Counted from the stretch's first letter, positions 2,973-34,243 are shown. The stretch is 64,000 bases of DNA from Candidatus Aminicenantes bacterium (GCA_016927475.1 JAFGMO010000009.1:1789-65788), one strand, 5' to 3'. Notes: a model not told the origin generated them from the sequence alone. Program-made: numbers and translations.

Positions 2973-5585
2973 ATGTTACATAATAAAAAATCCTATCTTT
3001 TTGTTTTGGCCTTGACATGCTTTCTTATTGTTCCTCAATTTTTAAGCGCACAGACTTCCCCCGAAGATTTCCTCAAATTCAAAGTTGGTGCCGATAAAAA
3101 ATTAGCCGATTACAGCCAGATCCGGGCTTACTTTCAACAACTCGGCAATGAAACTCCTCTTCTTACTGTTTTTGATATCGGCCAATCCGTCCGTGGAAAA
3201 ACAATGACGATGGCCGTTATCACCTCGGAAGAAAATATGGCCAGGCTGGATGACCTCAAAAAGGTCACCAAAAAACTGCGCGATGCTCGGGGAATTTCAG
3301 AAGAAGAGGCCCAACGTCTGGCTTTAGAAGGGAAAATTTTTGTTCTTATTACCTGTAATCTACACGCCACTGAGATCGCCTCTTCACAGATGGCCCTTGA
3401 ATTGGCCTACGACCTTGTTACGGGAAAAACTCCCTTCGATGCGGCCAAGGTTCTGGAAGACGTCGTCGTTCTCCTCGTTCCCACGTCCAATCCCGACGGG
3501 GAAACAATGGTCACCGAATGGTACCGTAAGTACGTCGGGACAAAATTTGAGGGCGGCCGGATGCCCTGGCTTTATCACGACTATGCCGGTCACGACAACA
3601 ACCGGGACTGGTTTATGTTCAACCTGCCCGAAACGAGGGCCATAACCCGTGTTCTTTACCACGATTGGATCCCTCAGATCCATATTGATGAACACCAAAT
3701 GGGAAGCACAGGGGCCAGGCTTTTTGTTCCGCCCTTCATGGACCCTCCCATTCCCAATGTCCATCCCCTTATCTGGAGAAGCGTCAATCTCTGCGGAGCC
3801 AACATGTCCTATGCCCTCCAGGCCAACGGTTTTAAAGGTGTCGTCCACGACCGCAGCTTCACGGGTTGGTGGATCGGTGCCTGCGACGATACATCCTGGT
3901 TGCATAACTGCACCGGCCTCTTGAGCGAGATGGCTTCCGCAAATATCGCTTCTCCCATTTTCATCGAATCGATTGAAATTCCGGATTCTTATGTCGAAAA
4001 AAGAATGAATTTTCCTGATCCTTGGCTCGGCGGCTGGTGGCGGTTGAGGGATATCGTCGAATATGAGCTCTGCCTTTCCAAAAGCCTGATCGAAACAGCT
4101 TATCTCAATAAAGAAAAATTTCTTTTCAACTTCTACAGGATGAATAAAGACGGCATAGAAAAAGCTCAGAAAGACGACCCCTATGCCTTTGTCATTTCCG
4201 CCGAACAACGCGATGTTCCCACAACCTATCGCATGCTTGACATCCTGAAATTCGGAGGTGTCGAGCTGAAACAAGCAAAAAAAGAATTTGTTGCCGACGG
4301 CAAGATTTACCCTGCAGGCTCATTGGTGGTGCTTATGGCTCAGCCCTACCGTCCTTACGCCAGAACTCTTCTCGAAAAACAGAAATATCCCGATATACGA
4401 CAGTATCCCGGCGGCCCGCCAGTTCCCCCGTATGACAACGCCGCATGGACTCTGCCACTGCAGATGGGCGTCTCCTGTGAACGTATCGAGCACCCCTTTA
4501 AGGCGGAATTGACTCCGCTGGACGAGGTCAAACCGTCAAAAATTTCTTCCATCCCGGAAACCGCCTCATATCTTGTATTGGACTCCAAAACCAATGTTTC
4601 CTACAGCGCCGCCATATCCCTTCTCCAAAAGAAGGTGGACATATCCCGCTCCCGCCAGGGAATCAACGGGAAGGACTTTCATGCCTGTACGGGAAGCTTC
4701 ATCATGAAAAACTCTCCCGCCGTCCGAGAAACACTTTCACCCTTCGTCGAAAAACATTTTCTTCCCGTCTATACTCTGGAATCGGTCGAAGATATTCCCA
4801 ATGATAAGGTCCTTCCACTGCGGATCGGCCTTTACAGGTCGTGGCGGTCCAATATGGACGAAGGATGGACGCGTTATGTCCTCGATGACCTGAAAATTCC
4901 CTACACCACACTTCGCAATAAGGACTTTAAAGGGACGAAAAAAGAAAAAGCCGACTTGAAGAGTTCATTCGATGTCATCATTTTCGCCAGTGAAAATGCC
5001 GATATCATCAAGCTTGGAAAACCCGGATCTTCCTCCGCTTACCGGCGTTATTTTTCCCCCATGCCTCAAGAATACGAAGGGGGTATCGGGAAAGAAGGCA
5101 TTGAAGCTCTGAAGTCCTTCGTTGAAAAAGGAGGAATCCTCGTCACTCTCAATGACGCCTGTGACCTCATCTTCGAAGAATTCAGTCCGCCGGCCAGAAA
5201 CAGCCTGGAGCGGGTCTCACGCGATAAATTTTTCTGTCCGACATCCATTCTTAACGTTGAAGTAGATCCGTCAACACCGATCGGCTATGGTTTGCCCCGC
5301 AACACGGCGGTCATGTTTTCAAGCAGCCTAGCCATGTCGACATCCATCCCTTCTCCCCAATGGAACAGAAAAGTTGTCGCCTCCTTCCCTCAAGAGGACA
5401 TACTCCTCAGCGGATGGCTCCTGGGTGAAGAGTATCTATCCCGGAAGGCCGCGGTTGTCGATCTGTCTTATGAACAAGGACATATTATTCTTATCGGTAT
5501 CCGTTGTCAGTGGAGGGCTCAGTCGCACGGCGCTTATAAATTTCTTTTAAACGCCCTCCTTTATCCCGAAAAGGATAAAGAGTAA
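2973..5585 (+). CDS. Secreted M14 zinc carboxypeptidase-family protein
   Basis: Signal peptide; LHATE (HxxE), NPDG, HDNNRD, DEHQMG motifs; C-terminal GATase-like domain (MDEGWTRYV). GGAGG at 2963-2967 favours ATG 2973 over 2961. Confidence 0.9.
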   Translation: MLHNKKSYLFVLALTCFLIVPQFLSAQTSPEDFLKFKVGADKKLADYSQIRAYFQQLGNETPLLTVFDIGQSVRGKTMTMAVITSEENMARLDDLKKVTKKLRDARGISEEEAQRLALEGKIFVLITCNLHATEIASSQMALELAYDLVTGKTPFDAAKVLEDVVVLLVPTSNPDGETMVTEWYRKYVGTKFEGGRMPWLYHDYAGHDNNRDWFMFNLPETRAITRVLYHDWIPQIHIDEHQMGSTGARLFVPPFMDPPIPNVHPLIWRSVNLCGANMSYALQANGFKGVVHDRSFTGWWIGACDDTSWLHNCTGLLSEMASANIASPIFIESIEIPDSYVEKRMNFPDPWLGGWWRLRDIVEYELCLSKSLIETAYLNKEKFLFNFYRMNKDGIEKAQKDDPYAFVISAEQRDVPTTYRMLDILKFGGVELKQAKKEFVADGKIYPAGSLVVLMAQPYRPYARTLLEKQKYPDIRQYPGGPPVPPYDNAAWTLPLQMGVSCERIEHPFKAELTPLDEVKPSKISSIPETASYLVLDSKTNVSYSAAISLLQKKVDISRSRQGINGKDFHACTGSFIMKNSPAVRETLSPFVEKHFLPVYTLESVEDIPNDKVLPLRIGLYRSWRSNMDEGWTRYVLDDLKIPYTTLRNKDFKGTKKEKADLKSSFDVIIFASENADIIKLGKPGSSSAYRRYFSPMPQEYEGGIGKEGIEALKSFVEKGGILVTLNDACDLIFEEFSPPARNSLERVSRDKFFCPTSILNVEVDPSTPIGYGLPRNTAVMFSSSLAMSTSIPSPQWNRKVVASFPQEDILLSGWLLGEEYLSRKAAVVDLSYEQGHIILIGIRCQWRAQSHGAYKFLLNALLYPEKDKE

Positions 5586-25684: not shown

Positions 25685-25747
25685 AAAAACATCAATCATG
25701 TCTGAAACATTCCATTCACCTTGCCGGCAGGCAAAAGAGGGATTATT

Positions 25748-27352
25748 ATGAAAAAAATTTTCATTTTTCTTTGCGTTTTTCTCCTTATGGTTTTTTTCTT
25801 CTCCGGCTGTGACAATGGAAACGGCACATCGGACGCCAACGGAGGTGACGAAAACGGTGGCGACGAAACGCCTCCCGACAATCCCACACCGGTGCTGACA
25901 TCCATCTCCCCCACATCAAAAGTCCAGCATCTGCCCGCTTTTACCTTGACCGCCACCGGAACGGATTTTGTCGACGGCGCCAAGATTTTTTTTGACGGTG
26001 CTGAAAAAGAAACAACTTTCGTCAGCTCCACGGAGCTGACCTGTACCATTGAGCCGGAGGATATCACGGAAACCACGGCGGCGAACGCCTATGCCCCAAT
26101 CGGCATCCTTGATACGGATGTCAACGTTCTTGTCAACAATCCGACACCTGGAGGAGGCGATTCAGGAGAAACAACCTTCACCATCCGCAGCCGCCACAGC
26201 TTCGAAACATTTCAAGAAGTTGATAGTGCTTCAGTACCGGAGATCGCTGTTGACAGTCAGGGAAACATCTACATCGTCTATGAAGATGGAACATACAACA
26301 ATGGTGTGTGGCGTTTTGACGTTTATATCGTTTCTTCAAGTGATGGAGGTGAAACCTGGTCCGATCCGGTCAATGTATCCAATACCCCGGGAAGAAGCTT
26401 TTTTCCCGCAGTGGCTGTAGAGACTTCGGGAAATACATCCCAATCGGGTGAAACATCAGTTTCGGACACGCAGGATACCGTCTATGTCATCTGGAACGAT
26501 GATTCTGGCCGCGGCCAGAGGGATTTCGAGGTCAATATCCGCAGCTCAACGGATGGGGGAGCCACCTGGTCCAATCGTGACGAAATTTCGCACAGCGGGG
26601 GAAAGGGTCATGATAATAGCGTCATCGATATCGCCGTCGGCGGGGACGATACGGTTTATGTCGTCTGGAGCGACGACCGGAACTCAAAATACGGAGAAAT
26701 CTTTTTCACCAAAGCCGCCGGAGGTTCGAGCCTGGGGGCTCAAGGTTTAAGCTGGACCACGCCGAAAAAAATCGCCGCAGAACAAAGCCCCCGGATTTCT
26801 GTCGACGGCAGCAACAACCTTTATGTTGTTTGCGAATTTTATGGGTCCAAATTATGGGATATTGCATTCACCTATTCAACAGACGCCGGACAGAATTGGG
26901 AGAACCAACAAAACGTCAGCAATGCCTCCGACTATGACTTAGACCCCGATATCACAACCGACAGCCAGGGAATCGTCCACATTGTTTGGCAAGACTTAGG
27001 CAGCCCCAATTGGTCGGACGTTATCTATATCCATTCGACGACGGCGGTTACAGCCGAAACGAATTCGCTCTCCTGGATTTCCCCTGTTTATCTTTCCGAC
27101 ACACCGAAGTATGCAGAATATCCCAGACTGGTCTCCGACGCCGCTGATAATATTAACCTTGTCTGGAGTGACAGTTCCGATCACCTTTATTTCATCCGGT
27201 CCATAAACGGGGGGGATACCTGGACACAGAAAGTCAGTATATATGAAGACTACTGCAATGAGAATGCGATAGCGGTGGATAAAGAGGGAAACATCTATGT
27301 TGTCACCGACAGCTGGGACGGCATTTTCATCAAAAGCAAACACTGGGATTGA
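25748..27352 (+). CDS. Lipoprotein with IPT/TIG-like domain and BNR/sialidase-like beta-propeller
   Basis: Lipobox FFSGC after ATG 25748; PVLTSISP..LTATGTDFVDGAKI..FVSSTELTC IPT-like; repeated SSDGGETWS, STDGGATWS, SINGGDTWT Asp-boxes. Confidence 0.75.
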   Translation: MKKIFIFLCVFLLMVFFFSGCDNGNGTSDANGGDENGGDETPPDNPTPVLTSISPTSKVQHLPAFTLTATGTDFVDGAKIFFDGAEKETTFVSSTELTCTIEPEDITETTAANAYAPIGILDTDVNVLVNNPTPGGGDSGETTFTIRSRHSFETFQEVDSASVPEIAVDSQGNIYIVYEDGTYNNGVWRFDVYIVSSSDGGETWSDPVNVSNTPGRSFFPAVAVETSGNTSQSGETSVSDTQDTVYVIWNDDSGRGQRDFEVNIRSSTDGGATWSNRDEISHSGGKGHDNSVIDIAVGGDDTVYVVWSDDRNSKYGEIFFTKAAGGSSLGAQGLSWTTPKKIAAEQSPRISVDGSNNLYVVCEFYGSKLWDIAFTYSTDAGQNWENQQNVSNASDYDLDPDITTDSQGIVHIVWQDLGSPNWSDVIYIHSTTAVTAETNSLSWISPVYLSDTPKYAEYPRLVSDAADNINLVWSDSSDHLYFIRSINGGDTWTQKVSIYEDYCNENAIAVDKEGNIYVVTDSWDGIFIKSKHWD

Positions 27353-28178: not shown

Positions 28179-28254
28179 TGGTGCGCCTGGCAGGATTCGA
28201 ACCTGCGGCTTTCGGTTCCGGAGACCGACGCTCTATCCCCTGAGCTACAGGCGC
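28179..28254 (-). tRNA. tRNA-Arg(CCG)
   Basis: Reverse complement GCGCCTGTAGCTCAGGGGATAGAGCGTCGGTCTCCGGAACCGAAAGCCGCAGGTTCGAATCCTGCCAGGCGCACCA: 7-bp acceptor stem, anticodon stem TCGGT/ACCGA with CCG, TTCGAAT T-loop, encoded CCA. Confidence 0.97.
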
Positions 28255-28327
28255 ATGAAAAAAATTTATTATAGCAGAATCAAAAAAACATGAATAGTGC
28301 AGGCTTAACGAGCTTATTTTTCTCGTG

Positions 28328-28564
28328 TTATTTTATCTTATATTTTTTGATCTTTCCGTTAATCGTCGTGTAATTCAGCCCCAATGTTTTTGCCGCTTTT
28401 TTCTGATTCCCTTCATGATGGACAAGAGCGCGGATGATGATCACTTTCTCCAGGTACTGCATAAATTCACTCAAGGATGTATCTTGCTGGACAAAAAAAT
28501 GATGAATAATTAGGTCGAACCCCTTTTGTAAAATATTATGTTTTTTTATTGTCTCTTTTTCTAT
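28328..28564 (-). CDS. Small Fis-family HTH protein (absent from the ORF track; start codon uncertain)
   Basis: Hand translation: ..SLSEFMQYLEKVIIIRALVHHEGNQKKAAKTLGLNYTTINGKIKKYKIK-TAA (stop 28328-28330). Frame open up to TGA at 28577-28579; in-frame candidates are ATA 28564, TTG 28474, ATG 28462. Confidence 0.75.
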   Translation of the reverse strand: MEKETIKKHNILQKGFDLIIHHFFVQQDTSLSEFMQYLEKVIIIRALVHHEGNQKKAAKTLGLNYTTINGKIKKYKIK

Positions 28565-29211
28565 TTTAGTACCTCTTCACTTTTTTATTATTGAGAATAT
28601 CTATTCTTAGTGTGACTCTCTGTCGGTTTTTCGGTTTCTATAATATCTATACGTTCCTTTCATCAATTTAGTTACACATGCTTATCTCACAAAATCACAT
28701 ATTATTAAAAAAATATATTTCAAGGAGTTTCAAATTCAAATCACTCTAAATCATTTCTAAACAAAAAGAACCCGCTTTATTAAAAATCTAGAGTGACCAA
28801 AATATATGCAATTTCCCATAATATCAATCGATTCAAGAAATTAAACAAGGTTATCACCACCTTTTCAACATACTTATGCACAGAAAAAGTGGAAAAGAGA
28901 TCCTTCATTTTTTTGTTTATTGTATTGTCAAGCACAAAAAGACATGAAGAATCGAATAATAGAAGAAAAGGGCCGGCTCGGCGAAGGGGCTTCCAACTAA
29001 ATCGCCAGCGATATTGAAGAAGATCCGTGATACAATTCCCCAAAGGTTGATGCTCTTTATCTTTTGAAAATCTTAAAAAAAATTGACTTGAATGGTCAAT
29101 TTCCATATATTGCCCTTAACCGATAACTTTTAAGAGGGATTTACTTTTCTTGAAAGGCATTTCTTTTACTACCTGAAATCGATGTTACCATCGAAACAAG
29201 GAGGGAAGAGT

Positions 29212-30615
29212 ATGGACAAAAACGTTAATAAAAGCATAAAGCCGGTAACACATTCAAACACCGGCCTGTTTTACAAGATCTTCAAACTCTTTACCGAAAT
29301 TCGGCCCGGCGAAGAAGCCGTTACATTTCTTTTAATGCTTAATATCTTTCTTATCTTCACAGCCTATTACATCATCAAACCCGTCCGGGAAGCCCTCATC
29401 CTCGCCGGAAAGGGAGTTGAATTCAAAAGTTATCTATCCGCCGTCATGGTCGTTCTTCTTATTTTTGTCGTCAAGGCCTACAGTGCCATCAGCTCCCGCG
29501 TTTCCCGCCAGAAGCTCATCTCCTGGGTTACAATCTTTTTTATTTCCAACCTGGTCATTTTTTATGTTTTTTCTCTTCTTGGAATCGGTCTGGGAACCAT
29601 GGGCATCATCTTTTTTGTCTGGATCGGTATCTTCAACCTTATGGTTCCAGCACAGTTTTGGGGTTTCGCCAATGACATCTTCACTCCGGAAGCTGGTAAG
29701 AGGCTACTGCCCATCGTCGCCTTTGGAGCCACTTTCGGGGCCTTCTCGGGAAGCACCATCGCCCGATGGCTGGTAACCTCCCTGGGAGTTTACCAGATGA
29801 TGCTTTTTTCCGCAGGTATTCTGGTCCTCTGTATTTTTTTAAGTTTAATCGTTCACCGTATTGACCTCAAAAAAAACCCTTTTCGCGCTTCAGGCGCGGA
29901 ACCCGCGGCTGTTACCAACGAACATGAAAAGGAAAAACCGCTGGATAAAACCGGCGGATTTAAGCTGATTTTCAAGAAAAGGTACCTGCTCTATATCGCC
30001 CTTTTTGTCCTTTTCCTGAACTTTGTCAACACCAACGGCGAGTATATGCTCGGAGATATCGCTTCCCTCTGGGCAAATAACACCGTTAATGCAGGAACTG
30101 CAGCCGGTCTGAGTCTGGACCAGATGATAGGAAAATTTTACGCCGAATTTTTCCAGGTCGTCAATTTCCTTACTCTCTTTATCCAACTAGTTCTGGTTTC
30201 CCGTATTTTCAAATGGTTCGGTGTAAGGATTGCCGTCCTCATCCTTCCTATTATCGCCCTGGGTGGTTACAGTCTCATCGGCATCGGAGCCACTCTGGCC
30301 ATCATCAAATGGACAAAAATACTGGAAAACAGCACGGATTATTCATTGATGAATACGACACGCCATGCCCTTTTTCTCGTGACAACAAGAGAAGAAAAAT
30401 ACAAGGCCAAAGCGGCCGTCGCCACCTTTTTTCACCGGGCGGGAGATATTTTATCCGCATTGATCGTCTATTTGGGTATCCATCATCTGGCTTTCAACCT
30501 GGAAAAATTCGGTTTGTTCAACGTGGCTCTGGTTGCTGTTATGTTGGTTTTCGGATTCATCATCATGCGTGAGCACAAACGCATCACAGCAAAGAATTCT
30601 ATCGCAAATCCTTGA
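29212..30615 (+). CDS. NTT/TLC-family (Npt1/Npt2, ATP/ADP-translocase-like) MFS transporter
   Basis: YYIIKPVREALI, QFWGFANDIF..GKRLLP, KILENSTDYSLMNT, TTREEKYKAK..FFHRAGD; about 12 TM; no HEAT/cNMP extension. RBS GGAGG before ATG 29212. Confidence 0.85.
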   Translation: MDKNVNKSIKPVTHSNTGLFYKIFKLFTEIRPGEEAVTFLLMLNIFLIFTAYYIIKPVREALILAGKGVEFKSYLSAVMVVLLIFVVKAYSAISSRVSRQKLISWVTIFFISNLVIFYVFSLLGIGLGTMGIIFFVWIGIFNLMVPAQFWGFANDIFTPEAGKRLLPIVAFGATFGAFSGSTIARWLVTSLGVYQMMLFSAGILVLCIFLSLIVHRIDLKKNPFRASGAEPAAVTNEHEKEKPLDKTGGFKLIFKKRYLLYIALFVLFLNFVNTNGEYMLGDIASLWANNTVNAGTAAGLSLDQMIGKFYAEFFQVVNFLTLFIQLVLVSRIFKWFGVRIAVLILPIIALGGYSLIGIGATLAIIKWTKILENSTDYSLMNTTRHALFLVTTREEKYKAKAAVATFFHRAGDILSALIVYLGIHHLAFNLEKFGLFNVALVAVMLVFGFIIMREHKRITAKNSIANP

Positions 30616-31450
30616 CCTTAAGAATTCCCCCTGAATCCTGGGCGATGTAAAGAAAACCTTCATCATCGAGGGCGATACCTTCCTGGTTATCTCCAAGAAA
30701 AGCATAGGCACGGACTAGTGCGCCTTGAAGCGTTACTTCAAACAGGATGTTATCCGCATCGCTGACAATATTCAAAAAGCCGGATCTTTTGTCGAAGCAC
30801 ATAGCGGCCGGATCGTCGATTCTGACGGAAAAAACCCGAAGAATGCGGGCTTCGGCAGTTTCTCCCCGAGCGGATTTGAGTGGAACATCCAATTCCATAA
30901 TACAGGAAGGATCCCACTGATTTCCCGCATAGAACGTTCCTCCTTCCGGATGAGAGGCGTTCGGGACAAATTCAAGACACTCGATACCGTTGTCATAAGC
31001 ATCTTCCTGCTTCTGTAGAAAAAAAGGATCATCCTTATAGCGGCGGTTGACGGTGAATCTCCGGGTTATCCTTTTTTCATCCGGATCAAACTCAAGGATA
31101 ACATCATCCCCTTCGACGACAATATAAAGAAGGCCCGTCCCAGGATCGACAGTGATGCCTTCCAGATCTCCAGGAACACGGTGATTGGCTACAGGCCGGC
31201 CTTCCTTTGTTATCTCAGCGACTTCCCCTTCATCGCTGACGACAAAGAGAGTTTTACGCAGGGGGTGAAAGCAGATTCCGGAGGGTTCCGTAAAATTCTG
31301 CTGGTCGATATTCCCGCCGAATCCAGGTTCGTCCAACCAGAGATAAGGAAACCTTATCGAGGATGACTGTTTTCCAGGAGAACAAACCAAAGCCAGCATG
31401 GATAACAAAACGACAACGGTGCTTTTCATTGTCAAATATTTTTTTCTCAT
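30599..31450 (-). CDS. SdiA-regulated/YjiK-like beta-propeller lipoprotein
   Basis: Lipoprotein-like signal (LALVCS); repeats EPSGICF..LFVVSDE, DLEGITVD, NGIECLEF, QEGIALD. Overlaps the NTT 3' end by 17 bp, convergent. Confidence 0.72.
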   Translation of the reverse strand: MRKKYLTMKSTVVVLLSMLALVCSPGKQSSSIRFPYLWLDEPGFGGNIDQQNFTEPSGICFHPLRKTLFVVSDEGEVAEITKEGRPVANHRVPGDLEGITVDPGTGLLYIVVEGDDVILEFDPDEKRITRRFTVNRRYKDDPFFLQKQEDAYDNGIECLEFVPNASHPEGGTFYAGNQWDPSCIMELDVPLKSARGETAEARILRVFSVRIDDPAAMCFDKRSGFLNIVSDADNILFEVTLQGALVRAYAFLGDNQEGIALDDEGFLYIAQDSGGILKVKDLR

Positions 31451-31599
31451 GATGATAGCCGGTTTTTATCAGCTGGTTAAAAGTTTATATCATTATTTTT
31501 TCTCAATTTCTAGAAAATTTTTAACATTGATTTTCTAAAGATAGCTTTATATAATAAGCCCGCTTTGTTGGGGATAATTTGCCAGCCACGGAGTGCGTT

Positions 31600-32418
31600 A
31601 TGAGATATAAAGCATTTTTCTGCCTGTTTTTTCTTTTGTTCTTTCCCATTTTTTCCGCTTTCGGCCAATTCAATCCTGAAGAACTAGCCGAAAGAGAAAA
31701 CATCGAGGTTTTTCTCAAAAACGCCGAAATTATCCTTTTCAAAGAAATCGGAGAGGGCGTCACCAAACCCTATAAACTTACTCTGAGAAAAAACGGCGAG
31801 GAGATGGAAGGTTGCTGGAAAAACCCTTACGGTATTCAAAAAGGACACCTTGAAGGCTGGCAGTACGAAATCGCCGCTTACCGTATGGATAAACTGCTTA
31901 ATTTGAACATGATCCCTCCGACTGTCGAACGCGAATTTCAGGGAAAAAGAGGGTCCCTGCAGTTTTGGGTGGATACGGCTTTAAGCGAATTAGACAGAAT
32001 GGAAAATAACATCAACATACCTCGATACAAGCTCCCACACTGGAACAAGATGAAATATCTCACCCGGGCTTTTGACTGCCTCATCGCAAATGAGGACCGA
32101 ACACAGCAAAACATGCGCTACACCGAAGACTGGAGGACCCTTCTTATCGATCATTCCCGTTCATTCCGCTCCAAGCGTAAATACAGGAAACAATTGATGT
32201 ATGGAAAAAACGGCCTTAAAGCCATCCAGCTTTTTCGCATTTTACCACGCTCGTTTGTCCAAAAAGTGGAAGAGCTGACCTTTGAAAATATTAGAAGCGC
32301 CGTCGGTTCAACTCTCAGCGATGAGGAAATTGAAGCCTTACTTGAAAGAAAGGAGCTTCTTCTCAAAGAAATTCAAGAAATGATCAAGGATAAAGGAAAA
32401 GCAAAGGTTCTCTATTAA
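31600..32418 (+). CDS. Secreted atypical kinase-like protein (PI3/PI4-kinase/HipA-like fold), paralog 1
   Basis: Signal peptide MRYKAFFCLFFLLFFPIFSAFG; IGEGVTKP (Gly loop), WK, YEIAAY, MIPPTVER, FDCLIANEDRTQQN, LIDHS. Confidence 0.75.
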   Translation: MRYKAFFCLFFLLFFPIFSAFGQFNPEELAERENIEVFLKNAEIILFKEIGEGVTKPYKLTLRKNGEEMEGCWKNPYGIQKGHLEGWQYEIAAYRMDKLLNLNMIPPTVEREFQGKRGSLQFWVDTALSELDRMENNINIPRYKLPHWNKMKYLTRAFDCLIANEDRTQQNMRYTEDWRTLLIDHSRSFRSKRKYRKQLMYGKNGLKAIQLFRILPRSFVQKVEELTFENIRSAVGSTLSDEEIEALLERKELLLKEIQEMIKDKGKAKVLY

Positions 32419-32446
32419 AAAGAAAATTTTTGTTAAAATGGATTAA

Positions 32447-32716
32447 CTTGTATTATTCACGAGCCAAGCTTGCCGCAGGGGCTAGGTTGGGTCGGCGTGA
32501 GGCGTCAGCCTGTGAAGCTGTGCTTGGCACCGCTAACAGGCTGCAACAAAGCAGATGCGGTGAGATCAGCTCGCCTGGAAGGATAATTTGGCCGACATTT
32601 TCTTGAAAACAGTCATGGAAAACGTTTCATTATCAATTTTAACGAAAATCACCATTAAATGACACATAATATTGAAATTATCTGTTGGTGTCGGCCAGAT
32701 TTATGAATAATGCAGG
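32447..32716 (+). repeat. Structured non-coding repeat, copy 2 (270 bp, MITE-like)
   Basis: Ends CTTGTATTATTCA / TGAATAATGCAGG (13 bp, two G.U-type differences); flanked by TTAA on both sides; inner stems CAGCCTGT/ACAGGCTG and AATTTGGCCGACA/TGTCGGCCAGATT. Confidence 0.85.
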
Positions 32717-32744
32717 TTAACTTGAATAGTGCAGGGAGGGCAAC

Positions 32745-33569
32745 ATGAAAAAAATATGGACACCATTCATTCTTGTTTTGATTCTGGGGATCGGAATCGA
32801 ACCTTTGGCCCAATTCACAGCCGAAGAAGTCGCTGAGTTCGCCAAATGGGAAGACTTCCTGGCGACAGCCGAGATCGTAGAACAAGAGCAGATGGGCGGC
32901 CGGCTGGCCGTAACCGAACCCTGGAAACTGACCCTGGAAAAAGACGGGATTCGAAGAAATGCCCTATGGAAAGACGTCCAGGGCCGCCAAAAAGGATATC
33001 TTGAAAACTGGAGATGGGAAATAGCAGCCTATAGATTGAGCAATTATCTCGGCTTGAACATGGTCGCTCCGACCGTGGAACGCCGGTTCCAAGGAAACAG
33101 GGGCTCCATTCAGCTCTGGGTCGATTCTGAAATGTCTTACAGGGATAAAATTGAAAATGACGTCAAAACTCCTTCTTATAAAGTTTTTTATTTTAACAGG
33201 GCCGTTTATCTCCAGCGGGCCTTCGACAACCTCATCGCCAACGAAGATCGTCACATGGGCAATATCCTAATCACCAAGGATTGGCGTTTTATTCTCATCG
33301 ATCACTCCCGCACTTTCCGAACCTCGGGAAAATTTACCAAAAACCTCATCAACACTTCCAAATCGAGAGAAGGCAACAAGGAAATGAAACAACTCCCCAG
33401 GGATTTTGTCGACAAAATTAAGGAGCTCACCGCGGAAAAACTCAAAGAAATCGTCGGAGAATATCTCGATGACAAAGAGATCGAAGCCGTTATGAAAAGG
33501 AAAGTCCTGATTCTTGAAGAAATTGATAAGATTATCAAGAGGGACGGAGAAGACAAAGTCCTCTATTAA
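32745..33569 (+). CDS. Secreted atypical kinase-like protein (PI3/PI4-kinase/HipA-like fold), paralog 2
   Basis: Signal peptide MKKIWTPFILVLILGIGIEPLA; ALWK, WEIAAY, MVAPTVER, FDNLIANEDRHMGN, LIDHS; clearly homologous to 31600..32418 end to end. Confidence 0.78.
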   Translation: MKKIWTPFILVLILGIGIEPLAQFTAEEVAEFAKWEDFLATAEIVEQEQMGGRLAVTEPWKLTLEKDGIRRNALWKDVQGRQKGYLENWRWEIAAYRLSNYLGLNMVAPTVERRFQGNRGSIQLWVDSEMSYRDKIENDVKTPSYKVFYFNRAVYLQRAFDNLIANEDRHMGNILITKDWRFILIDHSRTFRTSGKFTKNLINTSKSREGNKEMKQLPRDFVDKIKELTAEKLKEIVGEYLDDKEIEAVMKRKVLILEEIDKIIKRDGEDKVLY

Positions 33570-33580
33570 TAGCGCAGGTT

Positions 33581-33835
33581 CCTGCGCTTTTCACGAGTCG
33601 AGATTACTGCGGATTCGAGGCGTCGATGGATGAAGCTGTGCTCGGCACCGCGAATCCATCGCAACGAAGCAGACGCGGTGAGATTCGGCTCGCCTGAAAG
33701 GTAAATTTTGCCAACGGTTTATTGAAAAGGTCTACGGCAAATGTACCATTCTCGATTCTGTGGAAAAATATCATTCACTGATAGATAACATTGAAATTTT
33801 ATTTTGGTGTCGGCAAAATTTATGAAAAGCGCAGG
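33581..33835 (+). repeat. Structured non-coding repeat, copy 3 (255 bp, MITE-like)
   Basis: Perfect 13-bp TIR CCTGCGCTTTTCA (33581-33593) / TGAAAAGCGCAGG (33823-33835); inner stem CGATGGAT/ATCCATCG; right end abuts the TGA of 33836..34243. Confidence 0.85.
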
Positions 33836-34243
33836 TCAGAGGTGTTTGACCATTAGCAGCACATTGTGATTCCCATCACGTTTATAAGTAAATTCGTCCA
33901 TCAACTGCCGGGAAAGATGGATGCCCATTCCTCCCTTTAAATTTTCCTTGATCATTCTTTCAACCTGAGGTTTTTCGGCGGTATGGGGATCAAAAGGAAA
34001 TCCAGAGTCTTTAACTTCTAAAAATACCTTTTTCTTATTGGTCCATACACGGATGATGATGTCCCCTTTTTCCTTCGGATATGCATAGCGGATGATATTA
34101 ACGCATATTTCATGCAGAGCAAGCTCAATTTGAAAGTATGTGTCTTCTGAAATCGTGAGTTTCTTGAGTGTTTCTTTTAAAAACGCCCGGATTTTATCCA
34201 ACTCGGCCATATCGCTGGAAACGGTGAGTTGTTTCATGAACAT
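33836..34243 (-). CDS. RsbW-like anti-sigma factor / ATP-binding protein (HATPase_c_2)
   Basis: IELALHEICVNIIRYAY, EVKDSGFPFDP, GGMGIHL..LMDE..Y. Confidence 0.88.
   Translation of the reverse strand: MFMKQLTVSSDMAELDKIRAFLKETLKKLTISEDTYFQIELALHEICVNIIRYAYPKEKGDIIIRVWTNKKKVFLEVKDSGFPFDPHTAEKPQVERMIKENLKGGMGIHLSRQLMDEFTYKRDGNHNVLLMVKHL

Follow-up and report, generated by a model that had tools for sequence, protein, structure and literature searches.

What does a carrier of the ATP/ADP-translocase family (NTT/TLC) do in a free-living bacterium, and why should its gene stand beside two genes for kinase-like proteins with signal peptides? The question is raised by a four-gene locus in a stretch of 64,000 nucleotides (the window, whose positions are counted from its first letter), which is contig C96:1789-65788 of a 95%-complete, 5.0-Mb metagenome-assembled genome of Aminicenantes. 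The four genes encode a short NTT carrier, a beta-propeller lipoprotein and two kinase-like paralogs, here called K1 and K2. The periplasm is held to lack ATP, and envelope processes hence use lipid-linked donors, proton-motive force relayed by TonB/Tol, or trans-envelope ABC machines. To our knowledge NTT/TLC is the only family of bacterial ATP/ADP carriers. The four genes are well supported as the core of a conserved cell-envelope module and as functionally linked partners rather than chance neighbours. The evidence likewise supports well a module made up of kinase-fold enzymes and phosphoesterases, both predicted to be exported, one clade of NTT carriers and cytoplasmic regulators. The regulators are of the partner-switching type here and of the cyclic nucleoside monophosphate (cNMP) type elsewhere.

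The carrier gene lies at 29212..30615 on the plus strand. Its open reading frame (ORF) opens at 29182, and the likely start is the ATG at 29212, which has a ribosome-binding site, AAGGAGGG, just 5' of it and gives a product of 467 aa. The gene for the lipoprotein, of the SdiA-regulated/phytase-like type, is at 30599..31450 on the minus strand (283 aa). It is convergent with the carrier gene, overlapping its 3' end by 17 bp, and divergent from K1 (31600..32418, plus strand; the ORF opens at TTG 31579). K2 follows at 32745..33569, also on the plus strand. K1 and K2 are predicted to be exported kinase paralogs of a Fam20/PI4K-like type. A preliminary description of the locus had listed an NTT without HEAT or cNMP extension, a propeller lipoprotein and two tandem proteins with kinase motifs, with the NTT gene converging on the propeller gene and the latter diverging from the kinases. 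The ORF listing recovered all four genes in that place and in those orientations.

The first member of the locus is the carrier. It scores 43.9 bits against the Pfam TLC model PF03219 (cutoff 21), and thus possesses a TLC domain. A profile of its clade finds the solved ADP,ATP carrier 9j3n with an E value of 7.5e-17. The motifs FWGFAN(D/E)I, G-K-R-x-x-x-x-x-x-G-A and a Y-x-L-x-x-x-T-(K/R)...K-x-K-A-A-I-D region are common to the clade and to 9j3n. Because of this score, this profile match and these common motifs, the window NTT is regarded as a genuine but distant NTT homolog. In the Pfam search the match to MFS_1 was weak and below cutoff, and no HEAT or cNMP domain was found. A crude hydropathy scan over 19 residues gave nine strongly hydrophobic windows, three of which overlap, so that about seven distinct segments can be counted, where an MFS-like carrier of this family would have about 12 helices. 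Orthologs of 39-63% identity occur in Aminicenantes and in other phyla, and the same genome holds two NTT-HEAT paralogs.

The NTT/TLC antiporters (PF03219, TC 2.A.12) are thus represented in this host both by the short carrier and by HEAT fusions. Nucleotide parasitism is an unlikely role, because the host is free-living, has a 5-Mb genome and carries pyrF next to the NTT gene. In this the clade of the window carrier departs from the canonical NTTs: its host has its own nucleotide synthesis, and among the clades compared no other shows linkage to kinases with predicted export. An Aminicenantes NTT already appears in the survey of Major, Embley and Williams (2017), as do NTT-HEAT(-cNBD) fusions from free-living bacteria, and their function is called unknown there (PMC5381601). 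The words 'kinase' and 'export' occur nowhere in that paper (PMC5381601).

K1 and K2 are 48% identical to each other. The kinase motifs with which they had been credited at the outset (WK, EIAAY, DRxxxN and IDHS) are real. All were located in K2, as W75-K76, E92-I-A-A-Y96, D168-R-H-x-x-N173 (preceded by N-E) and I185-D-H-S188. In K1 the loop reads N-E-D-R-T-Q-Q-N and I-D-H-S is likewise present. The motif columns and the structural model of K2 are based on an alignment of 68 sequences from related loci, which fall into three paralog groups, K1, K2 and K3. K2 orthologs retain W-K, E-I-A-A-Y, N-E-D-R-H-x-x-(N/Q) and I-D-H-S-R. In K1 orthologs D-R-T-Q-Q-N is invariable, with T170 in 21 of 21. D168 and D186 are invariant in both groups. 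Position 173 is always N in K1, and K2 orthologs have either N or Q there. In 69 further members of the family from other Acidobacteriota the loop is N-x-D-R-N-x-G-N and is accompanied by I-D-H-(S/T); D168, N173 and D186 are present in 67-69 of these 69. The third paralog group, K3, has a signal peptide and has kept the Asp of D-F-S, and in Aminicenantes it has lost the catalytic Asp D168.

Database models say little about the identity of these proteins. K1 has no Pfam match at all. K2 reaches 20.7 bits against PI3_PI4_kinase (PF00454, cutoff 27.1) and is sub-threshold against ABC1 as well. Against TIGR03843, the SCO1664 family, K1 scores 41 and K2 50 bits (cutoff 172.4). No match of either protein to Fam20C (PF06702) was found at E <= 0.01, and they are therefore not members of that sequence family. 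A search of the PDB with the K2 sequence gave nothing significant, the best hit being ABC1 at E 0.86. More than 2000 homologs of K2 exist in databases, and nearly all are unnamed.

The predicted structure is more informative. The AlphaFold (AF2) model of K2 has a mean pLDDT of 92.8 and a pTM of 0.88. In a Foldseek search of the PDB with this model ranks 1-11 were all Fam20 kinases (E 2e-9 to 6e-8, TMq 0.59-0.64). These matches (5xoo, 5yh0, 4kqb, 5wrr) include hydra Fam20, zebrafish Fam20C, the C. elegans Golgi casein kinase with Mn/ADP, and Fam20A. The next tier was PI4K-II-beta, followed by the PI3K/PI4K-III families. A kinase fold is thus found for the K2 model on structure search, with the kinases of the secretory pathway at the top. 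Computation supports K1 and K2 as kinase-fold enzymes that are closest in predicted structure to Fam20 and that retain the Asp and Asn of the catalytic loop as well as the Asp that binds metal. The motifs DR(H/N/T)xxN and I-D-H/F-S/T also resemble the GDRHxxN/IDFG of type II PI4-kinases, PI3-kinases, HipA/HipT and the SCO1664 family (TIGR03843). Unlike those enzymes, K1 and K2 score below the curated cutoffs, are without lipid-kinase accessory domains, and are predicted to be exported rather than cytoplasmic.

Export is predicted from the N-termini. Both have a basic n-region, a hydrophobic core and a cleavage-type site between A or G and QF. The signal peptide of K1 is MRYKAFFCLFFLLFFPIFSAFG and that of K2 is MKKIWTPFILVLILGIGIEPLA, each followed by QF. 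About 90 relatives from the K1, K2 and K3 groups show the pattern too. In K1 and K2 the mature end after the A is QF(T/K)PEE. In the wider K family signal peptides are near-universal (60+ members). The signal peptides that had been noticed on both kinases are thus conserved throughout the family, as judged by a sequence heuristic. Because these signal peptides are of the Sec type, K1 and K2 are predicted to reside in the periplasm or on the envelope. N-termini acting as membrane anchors that keep the kinase cytoplasmic were also considered. This was rejected, since a basic n-region together with the conserved A-x-A before Q predicts that the N-terminus stays inside and that the domain is either cleaved off or faces outward.

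Does the pairing of carrier and kinases extend beyond this locus? We compared 80 NTT-centred loci, one genome per species, which were searched with the window proteins. A locus was counted as linked when a gene of the K family, or of a second family named KL2 (described below), lay within 5 kb. Of the 31 loci whose carrier is at least 50% identical to the window NTT, 22 have a K gene within this distance. The 28 loci at about 39-49% identity include 13 with K and 6 with KL2, so that 19 of them are linked. One more locus (L061, 38.9% identity) also has K, which brings the short-NTT clade to about 42 linked loci out of 61. Among canonical NTT loci (22-27% identity; mostly Chlamydiae, some Legionella, other Proteobacteria and Verrucomicrobia) none of 18 is linked. 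A recurring linkage of NTT and kinase genes is thus real, and its return in dozens of genomes with differing flanks puts the arrangement far beyond chance. It reaches beyond Aminicenantes and involves two kinase-fold families without detectable sequence-profile similarity.

The usual order in Aminicenantes is K3 and NTT on the plus strand, the propeller gene (where present) on the minus strand, K1 and K2 on the plus strand, and an RsbW-like gene on the minus strand. In relatives the end of K3 overlaps the start of the NTT gene or falls within a few bases of it, an apparent operon. In those without the propeller gene K1 begins 17-160 bp after the NTT gene. The early statement that the genes are not one operon therefore holds for this genome and fails for many relatives, in which K3, NTT, K1 and K2 are co-directional with gaps of 17-160 bp. 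The genes that flank the core in the window (pyrF, a BNR protein, a NAD-kinase-like protein and an M1 peptidase) were found in none of those linked loci. Because the flanks turn over while the core stays, the core appears to be kept by selection and not by general synteny. Mere synteny within Aminicenantes was rejected as the source of the linkage, the flanks not being conserved and the linkage recurring in other phyla with KL2.

The KL2 family came to light in short-NTT orthologs of KSB1, Myxococcota, Bryobacteraceae and others. No K gene accompanies these, and a recurrent unannotated protein of about 560 aa stands in its place. KL2 has a lipobox Cys and the motifs Y-V-M-K-F-D, W-L-N-H-F-D-T-K-A-N-N and L-I-D-F-G-S, invariant in 32 homologs. 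Its kinase-type residues (K, E, H-x-D-x-x-x-x-N and DFG) are thus invariant. A fold search with its AlphaFold model (pLDDT 86.7) returned kinases only, with Fam20C first and then HipT and PI4KII-alpha (E 4e-4 and weaker). No Pfam domain was found in KL2 or in K3. A profile-profile comparison of K and KL2 gave no homology, save a non-significant C-terminal helix. Because of this lack of profile similarity the two are treated as separate families. Databases hold more than 5000 KL2 homologs.

In a KL2-centred set of 82 loci, mostly from metagenomes, 68 have a gene for an Omp85-family barrel ahead of KL2, and 40 have a gene of the NTT family no more than 10 kb from KL2. Where the sequence continues for 4 kb or more downstream, the latter figure is 26 of 35. 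The array is typically co-directional and runs from Omp85 through KL2, often Metallophos as an optional member, short NTT and NTT-HEAT to a cNMP-binding protein. The short NTTs of such arrays are 45-50% identical to the window carrier. Tight operons of this kind occur in Latescibacteria and on many metagenome contigs (L147:6674-14307; L150, L155, L163, L165, L177, L194 and others). On one single contig (L189) both K and KL2 stand next to an NTT-HEAT gene.

The association also holds at the level of whole genomes. Of 301 Acidobacteriota genomes searched with profiles, 75 (32 families) have the K family, often in several copies, and 113 have an NTT. The NTT is present in 69 of the 75 K-positive genomes and in 44 of the 226 K-negative ones (Fisher p 2e-30, not corrected for phylogeny). 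With either kinase family taken into account, it is found in 80 of 95 genomes that have K or KL2 and in 33 of 206 that have neither. A converse sample was centred on K and chosen regardless of NTTs: the best K match per genome in 58 Acidobacteriota outside Aminicenantales, with 20 kb around it. In 10 of these 58 loci K has an NTT or NTT-HEAT gene no further than 10 kb away, against an expectation of about one. A metallophosphatase is fused or adjacent to K in about 17 of them. In one Acidobacteriota genome (L088, G046:C23:35930-55730) a STAS gene and an NTT-HEAT gene are followed by a metallophosphatase gene and five tandem kinase paralogs.

The remaining members of the module are phosphatases, the propeller and regulators. 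The island of locus L010 further encodes STAS and PilZ proteins and two NTT-HEAT carriers, and its K3 is fused to a metallophosphatase with a signal peptide. The phosphatase domain of this fusion matches the protein-tyrosine phosphatase of Shewanella (1v73/2z72) at E 1e-31. It shows the motifs GDxHG, GDxxDRG and GNHE, as does a phosphatase encoded elsewhere in the present genome, on contig C36. The Shewanella enzyme is a cold-active PPP-type protein-tyrosine phosphatase. The relatives described here differ from it in being fused or adjacent to the kinase-like K3 in an NTT cluster, and they lie outside this window. Other associations of the short NTT were seen as well. In some Acidobacteriota and Gemmatimonadota (L055:7581-9446, L065, L064) the gene directly upstream of it encodes a Ser/Thr kinase of the Hanks type whose C-terminus is a TonB_C domain, and in L060 and L043 a PAP2 phosphatase gene adjoins it.

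The propeller is above the gathering score of two Pfam models, with 45.9 bits against PF06977 (cutoff 21) and 33.1 against PF13449 (cutoff 27.6), and it has no sequence match in the PDB. A Cys closes its signal peptide and is in register with the canonical lipobox kept in 15 orthologs. Given this lipoprotein signal, the protein should act in the periplasm or on the envelope. Of about 35 kinase-linked Aminicenantes loci, about 15 have its gene between NTT and K1, and it is thus an optional member of the cluster. A role as phosphoesterase had been suggested for it. Nothing stands behind that suggestion beyond weak Pfam names, and an activity is not inferable from domain scores.

On the other side of K2, and convergent with it, is the gene for an RsbW-type HATPase_c_2 protein (33836..34243, minus strand), a cytoplasmic partner-switching kinase by type. 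It scores 101.5 bits against PF13581, above the gathering score, and its gene holds the same position in most kinase-linked Aminicenantes loci. Its likely partners are encoded on contig C10, where a STAS protein (49 bits) and an FHA-GAF-SpoIIE PP2C phosphatase (171 bits) flank two NTT-HEAT genes. The set recalls RsbW/RsbV/RsbU, with HATPase_c_2 by K2 and STAS and SpoIIE phosphatase by the NTT-HEAT pair, and in relatives all are in one island. Unlike the RsbW/RsbV/RsbU systems, it has no sigma factor associated with it here. The output of partner switching is likely a HEAT-domain transporter and not transcription.

What might such a module do? An intact kinase catalytic site uses nucleoside triphosphate (NTP), and because of this an exported kinase-fold enzyme needs an NTP beyond the inner membrane. 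Members of the NTT family move ATP and ADP across the inner membrane, and a cell that makes ATP would drive such an exchanger outward. For these reasons outward exchange is proposed. We suggest tentatively, as a possible mechanism that we would stop short of calling probable, that the carrier of this clade supplies the exported kinases with ATP by counter-exchange within the linked envelope module. The adjacent carrier would let cytoplasmic ATP out and ADP, possibly with phosphate, in. K1 and K2 would act in the periplasm or on the envelope, on a substrate that could be an envelope protein or a glycan. Exported phosphoesterases may oppose or complete the reaction, namely the PPP-type phosphatase by K3 (on C36 here) and perhaps the propeller. 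The flux could be gated from the cytoplasm by the NTT-HEAT paralogs and the partner-switching set (the RsbW-like protein here, STAS and PP2C on C10). In other phyla a cNMP-binding protein would take the position equivalent to that set.

Several observations weigh against ATP export. The substrate of the carrier cannot be read from its sequence. The window NTT is only 22-27% identical to canonical NTT-clade genes, which are mostly from Chlamydiae, and at 43.3 bits it does not reach the level of the NTP/NDP exchanger equivalog TIGR00769 (cutoff 387.2). At the position of the N-lobe Lys the wider K family has K, R or Q. Kinase activity, export and ATP transport are all predictions here. Periplasmic ATP could leak through the porins of the outer membrane. 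The genomic association has gaps: 15 of the 95 Acidobacteriota genomes with K or KL2, several of them complete and single-contig, are without an NTT at E <= 1e-20, 33 NTT-positive ones have neither kinase family, and 48 of the 58 sampled K genes are not next to an NTT. Some Aminicenantes short-NTT genes (L017, L021, L023, L025 and L026; 55-58% identical) have a kinase-free neighbourhood and sit among genes for L-rhamnose isomerase, FGGY sugar kinase, arabinofuranosidase and TauE. In the present genome the module is broken up, with K3 and the phosphatase on one other contig and the NTT-HEAT genes on another, and the NTT and kinase genes are not one transcription unit. The metatranscriptome of the source study has no reads on the locus, and its contig-based depth cannot show absence. 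Finally, PamNTT1 is functionally asymmetric and biased towards ATP import (PMC1951785).

The direction of PamNTT1 is also an argument for the first alternative, salvage or import, since all characterised NTTs import nucleotides (PMC5381601, PMC1951785). The carrier would then take up ATP/ADP or other nucleoside tri- or monophosphates, and the exported kinase-fold proteins and phosphoesterases would make extracellular nucleotides or dinucleoside polyphosphates transportable by binding, trimming or interconverting them. In another version the carrier would recapture nucleotide that had entered the periplasm by a different route. Aminicenantes inhabit organic-rich sediments, from which the source samples came, and the module regularly occurs with metallophosphoesterases and sometimes with PAP2 phosphatases, which might process extracellular phospho-compounds. 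Diadenosine tetraphosphate (Ap4A) hydrolases are among the PPP-type enzymes. However, the strongly conserved catalytic and metal-binding residues of the kinases speak for NTP-consuming phosphotransfer rather than for binding alone, and outside the cell a kinase that lacks a phosphoryl donor is unable to make NTP. Among solved structures the phosphatase is nearest to a protein-tyrosine phosphatase and not to a nucleotidase or nuclease, and no recurrent nuclease or nucleotidase gene was found in the clusters examined. We consider salvage or import improbable.

We give similarly little credence to a second alternative, in which carrier and kinases are coupled through something other than ATP. The carrier would move another solute, such as a substrate or product of the enzymes, NAD, a nucleotide sugar or GTP, and the kinases would obtain their donor otherwise or would carry out AMPylation or glutamylation as SelO and SidJ do. 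Atypical kinase folds often carry out other chemistry, and the N-lobe Glu is, like the Lys, variable in the wider K family. The great distance of the clade from the canonical exchangers (43 bits against a 387-bit cutoff) leaves room for such a change. The modes described for characterised NTTs already include ATP/ADP exchange and broad nucleotide import besides others, and the clades from free-living organisms are uncharacterised (PMC5381601). Yet the carrier retains the motifs that it has in common with the solved ADP/ATP carrier, and every alternative kinase-fold chemistry known still consumes a nucleoside triphosphate. The presence of two profile-unrelated kinase-fold families beside one carrier clade is most simply read as a shared need for what all kinase folds bind.

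A complete lack of functional coupling, with inherited synteny in Acidobacteriota and chance elsewhere, is very improbable: it can draw on co-occurrence statistics that are not corrected for phylogeny, on the many K genes that are not NTT-linked, on genomes with one component only and on genes that are not co-transcribed here, but the core is conserved while its flanks turn over, in other phyla tight co-directional arrays join the carrier clade to a second kinase-fold family, canonical NTT loci show no such linkage (0 of 18), and an NTT is expected by chance in about 1-2% of 20-kb windows against an observed 17-74%.

The comparison with Fam20 gives the proposal of ATP export its wider setting. 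The Fam20 kinases (the Golgi casein kinase Fam20C, the xylosylkinase Fam20B and the pseudokinase Fam20A) are the best fold match for K2 and the top one for KL2. Fam20 proteins have N-terminal signal sequences and an extracytosolic location, which are predicted for K proteins, and both combine an atypical D-x-x-x-x-N loop with a metal-binding Asp. The Aminicenantes K3, which lacks the catalytic Asp, recalls the pseudokinase Fam20A. Metazoan Fam20 kinases depend on lumenal ATP, which an ATP/ADP exchanger of the endoplasmic reticulum and Golgi provides, and the proposed module would resemble this arrangement in its need for a dedicated nucleotide exchanger. K proteins differ from Fam20 in their low identity (13-16%), the absence of a Pfam Fam20C match, a far smaller mature domain (about 250 aa) and their bacterial hosts. 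The proposed bacterial carrier of ATP is an NTT/TLC protein and not SLC35, and the compartment is the periplasm behind a porin-containing outer membrane.

Taken to its full extent, the proposal would be that free-living diderms of many phyla run a regulated cycle of extracytoplasmic phosphorylation. ATP export by NTT and NTT-HEAT carriers, in return for ADP and perhaps phosphate and under the control of partner switching or of cyclic nucleotide, would serve Fam20-like kinases (K1 and K2 here, elsewhere the lipoprotein KL2 on an Omp85 barrel) that act on envelope proteins or glycans. A PPP-type phosphatase would reverse the reaction, and K3 may be a pseudokinase regulator like Fam20A. This general form is doubtful. 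If it were true, the common premise of a periplasm devoid of ATP-driven chemistry would be overturned, Fam20-like secretory kinases would be placed in bacteria as part of a counterpart of the eukaryotic secretory-pathway kinase system, and a first function could be assigned to the large groups of NTT and NTT-HEAT carriers in free-living bacteria. In the literature we found no description of a bacterial Fam20-like exported kinase or of an NTT-kinase module, and the 2017 NTT survey alone proved relevant. The pairing of predicted exported kinases and a phosphatase with members of the ATP/ADP-carrier family offers a concrete and testable exception to the ATP-free periplasm. Even without ATP export, two large unannotated families of putative exported kinases and their partners are defined.

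The window itself holds a rearranged instance of the module. The missing parts are on other contigs of the same genome. C36:3696-5650 (L229) encodes the metallophosphatase with a signal peptide (3696-4856) and K3. C10:68238-75392 (L228) holds the STAS gene, the two NTT-HEAT genes and the gene for the FHA-GAF-SpoIIE (PP2C) phosphatase, and a PAS histidine kinase gene adjoins it. A lone fourth K paralog lies on C6. Upstream of the NTT gene, where relatives have K3, the window has a tRNA-Arg(CCG) at 28179-28254 (minus strand). It is followed at about 28328-28470 (minus strand) by a short orphan ORF, whose C-terminus resembles a helix-turn-helix of the Fis/NtrC type as judged by eye only, and then by about 600 bp of AT-rich spacer. 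The stretch 28179-29180 looks like a rearrangement breakpoint. Two neighbours of the core are not conserved in related loci: a secreted TIG/BNR-repeat protein encoded upstream of pyrF (25721-27352, plus strand), and a NAD-kinase-like protein (PF01513, PF20143; 34378-35511, minus strand) whose gene adjoins the RsbW-like gene.

The gaps after K1 and K2 are unusually long and are filled by a dispersed non-coding repeat of 219 bp, with copies at 32499-32717 and 33617-33836. A search of Rfam over 28.0-34.4 kb returned the tRNA only, with no match for the repeats, and a known riboswitch was thereby ruled out for the sequences after K1 and K2. The two window copies are about 75% identical, and the genome holds at least 40 copies of 81-92% identity. 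The stems of the repeat covary between the window copies, with GCCTGT...ACAGGC in one and GATGGAT...ATCCATC in the other. One contig of the source metagenome has 38 other bases in place of 224 bp (32467-32692), which suggests an insertion polymorphism and an element similar to a miniature inverted-repeat transposable element (MITE).

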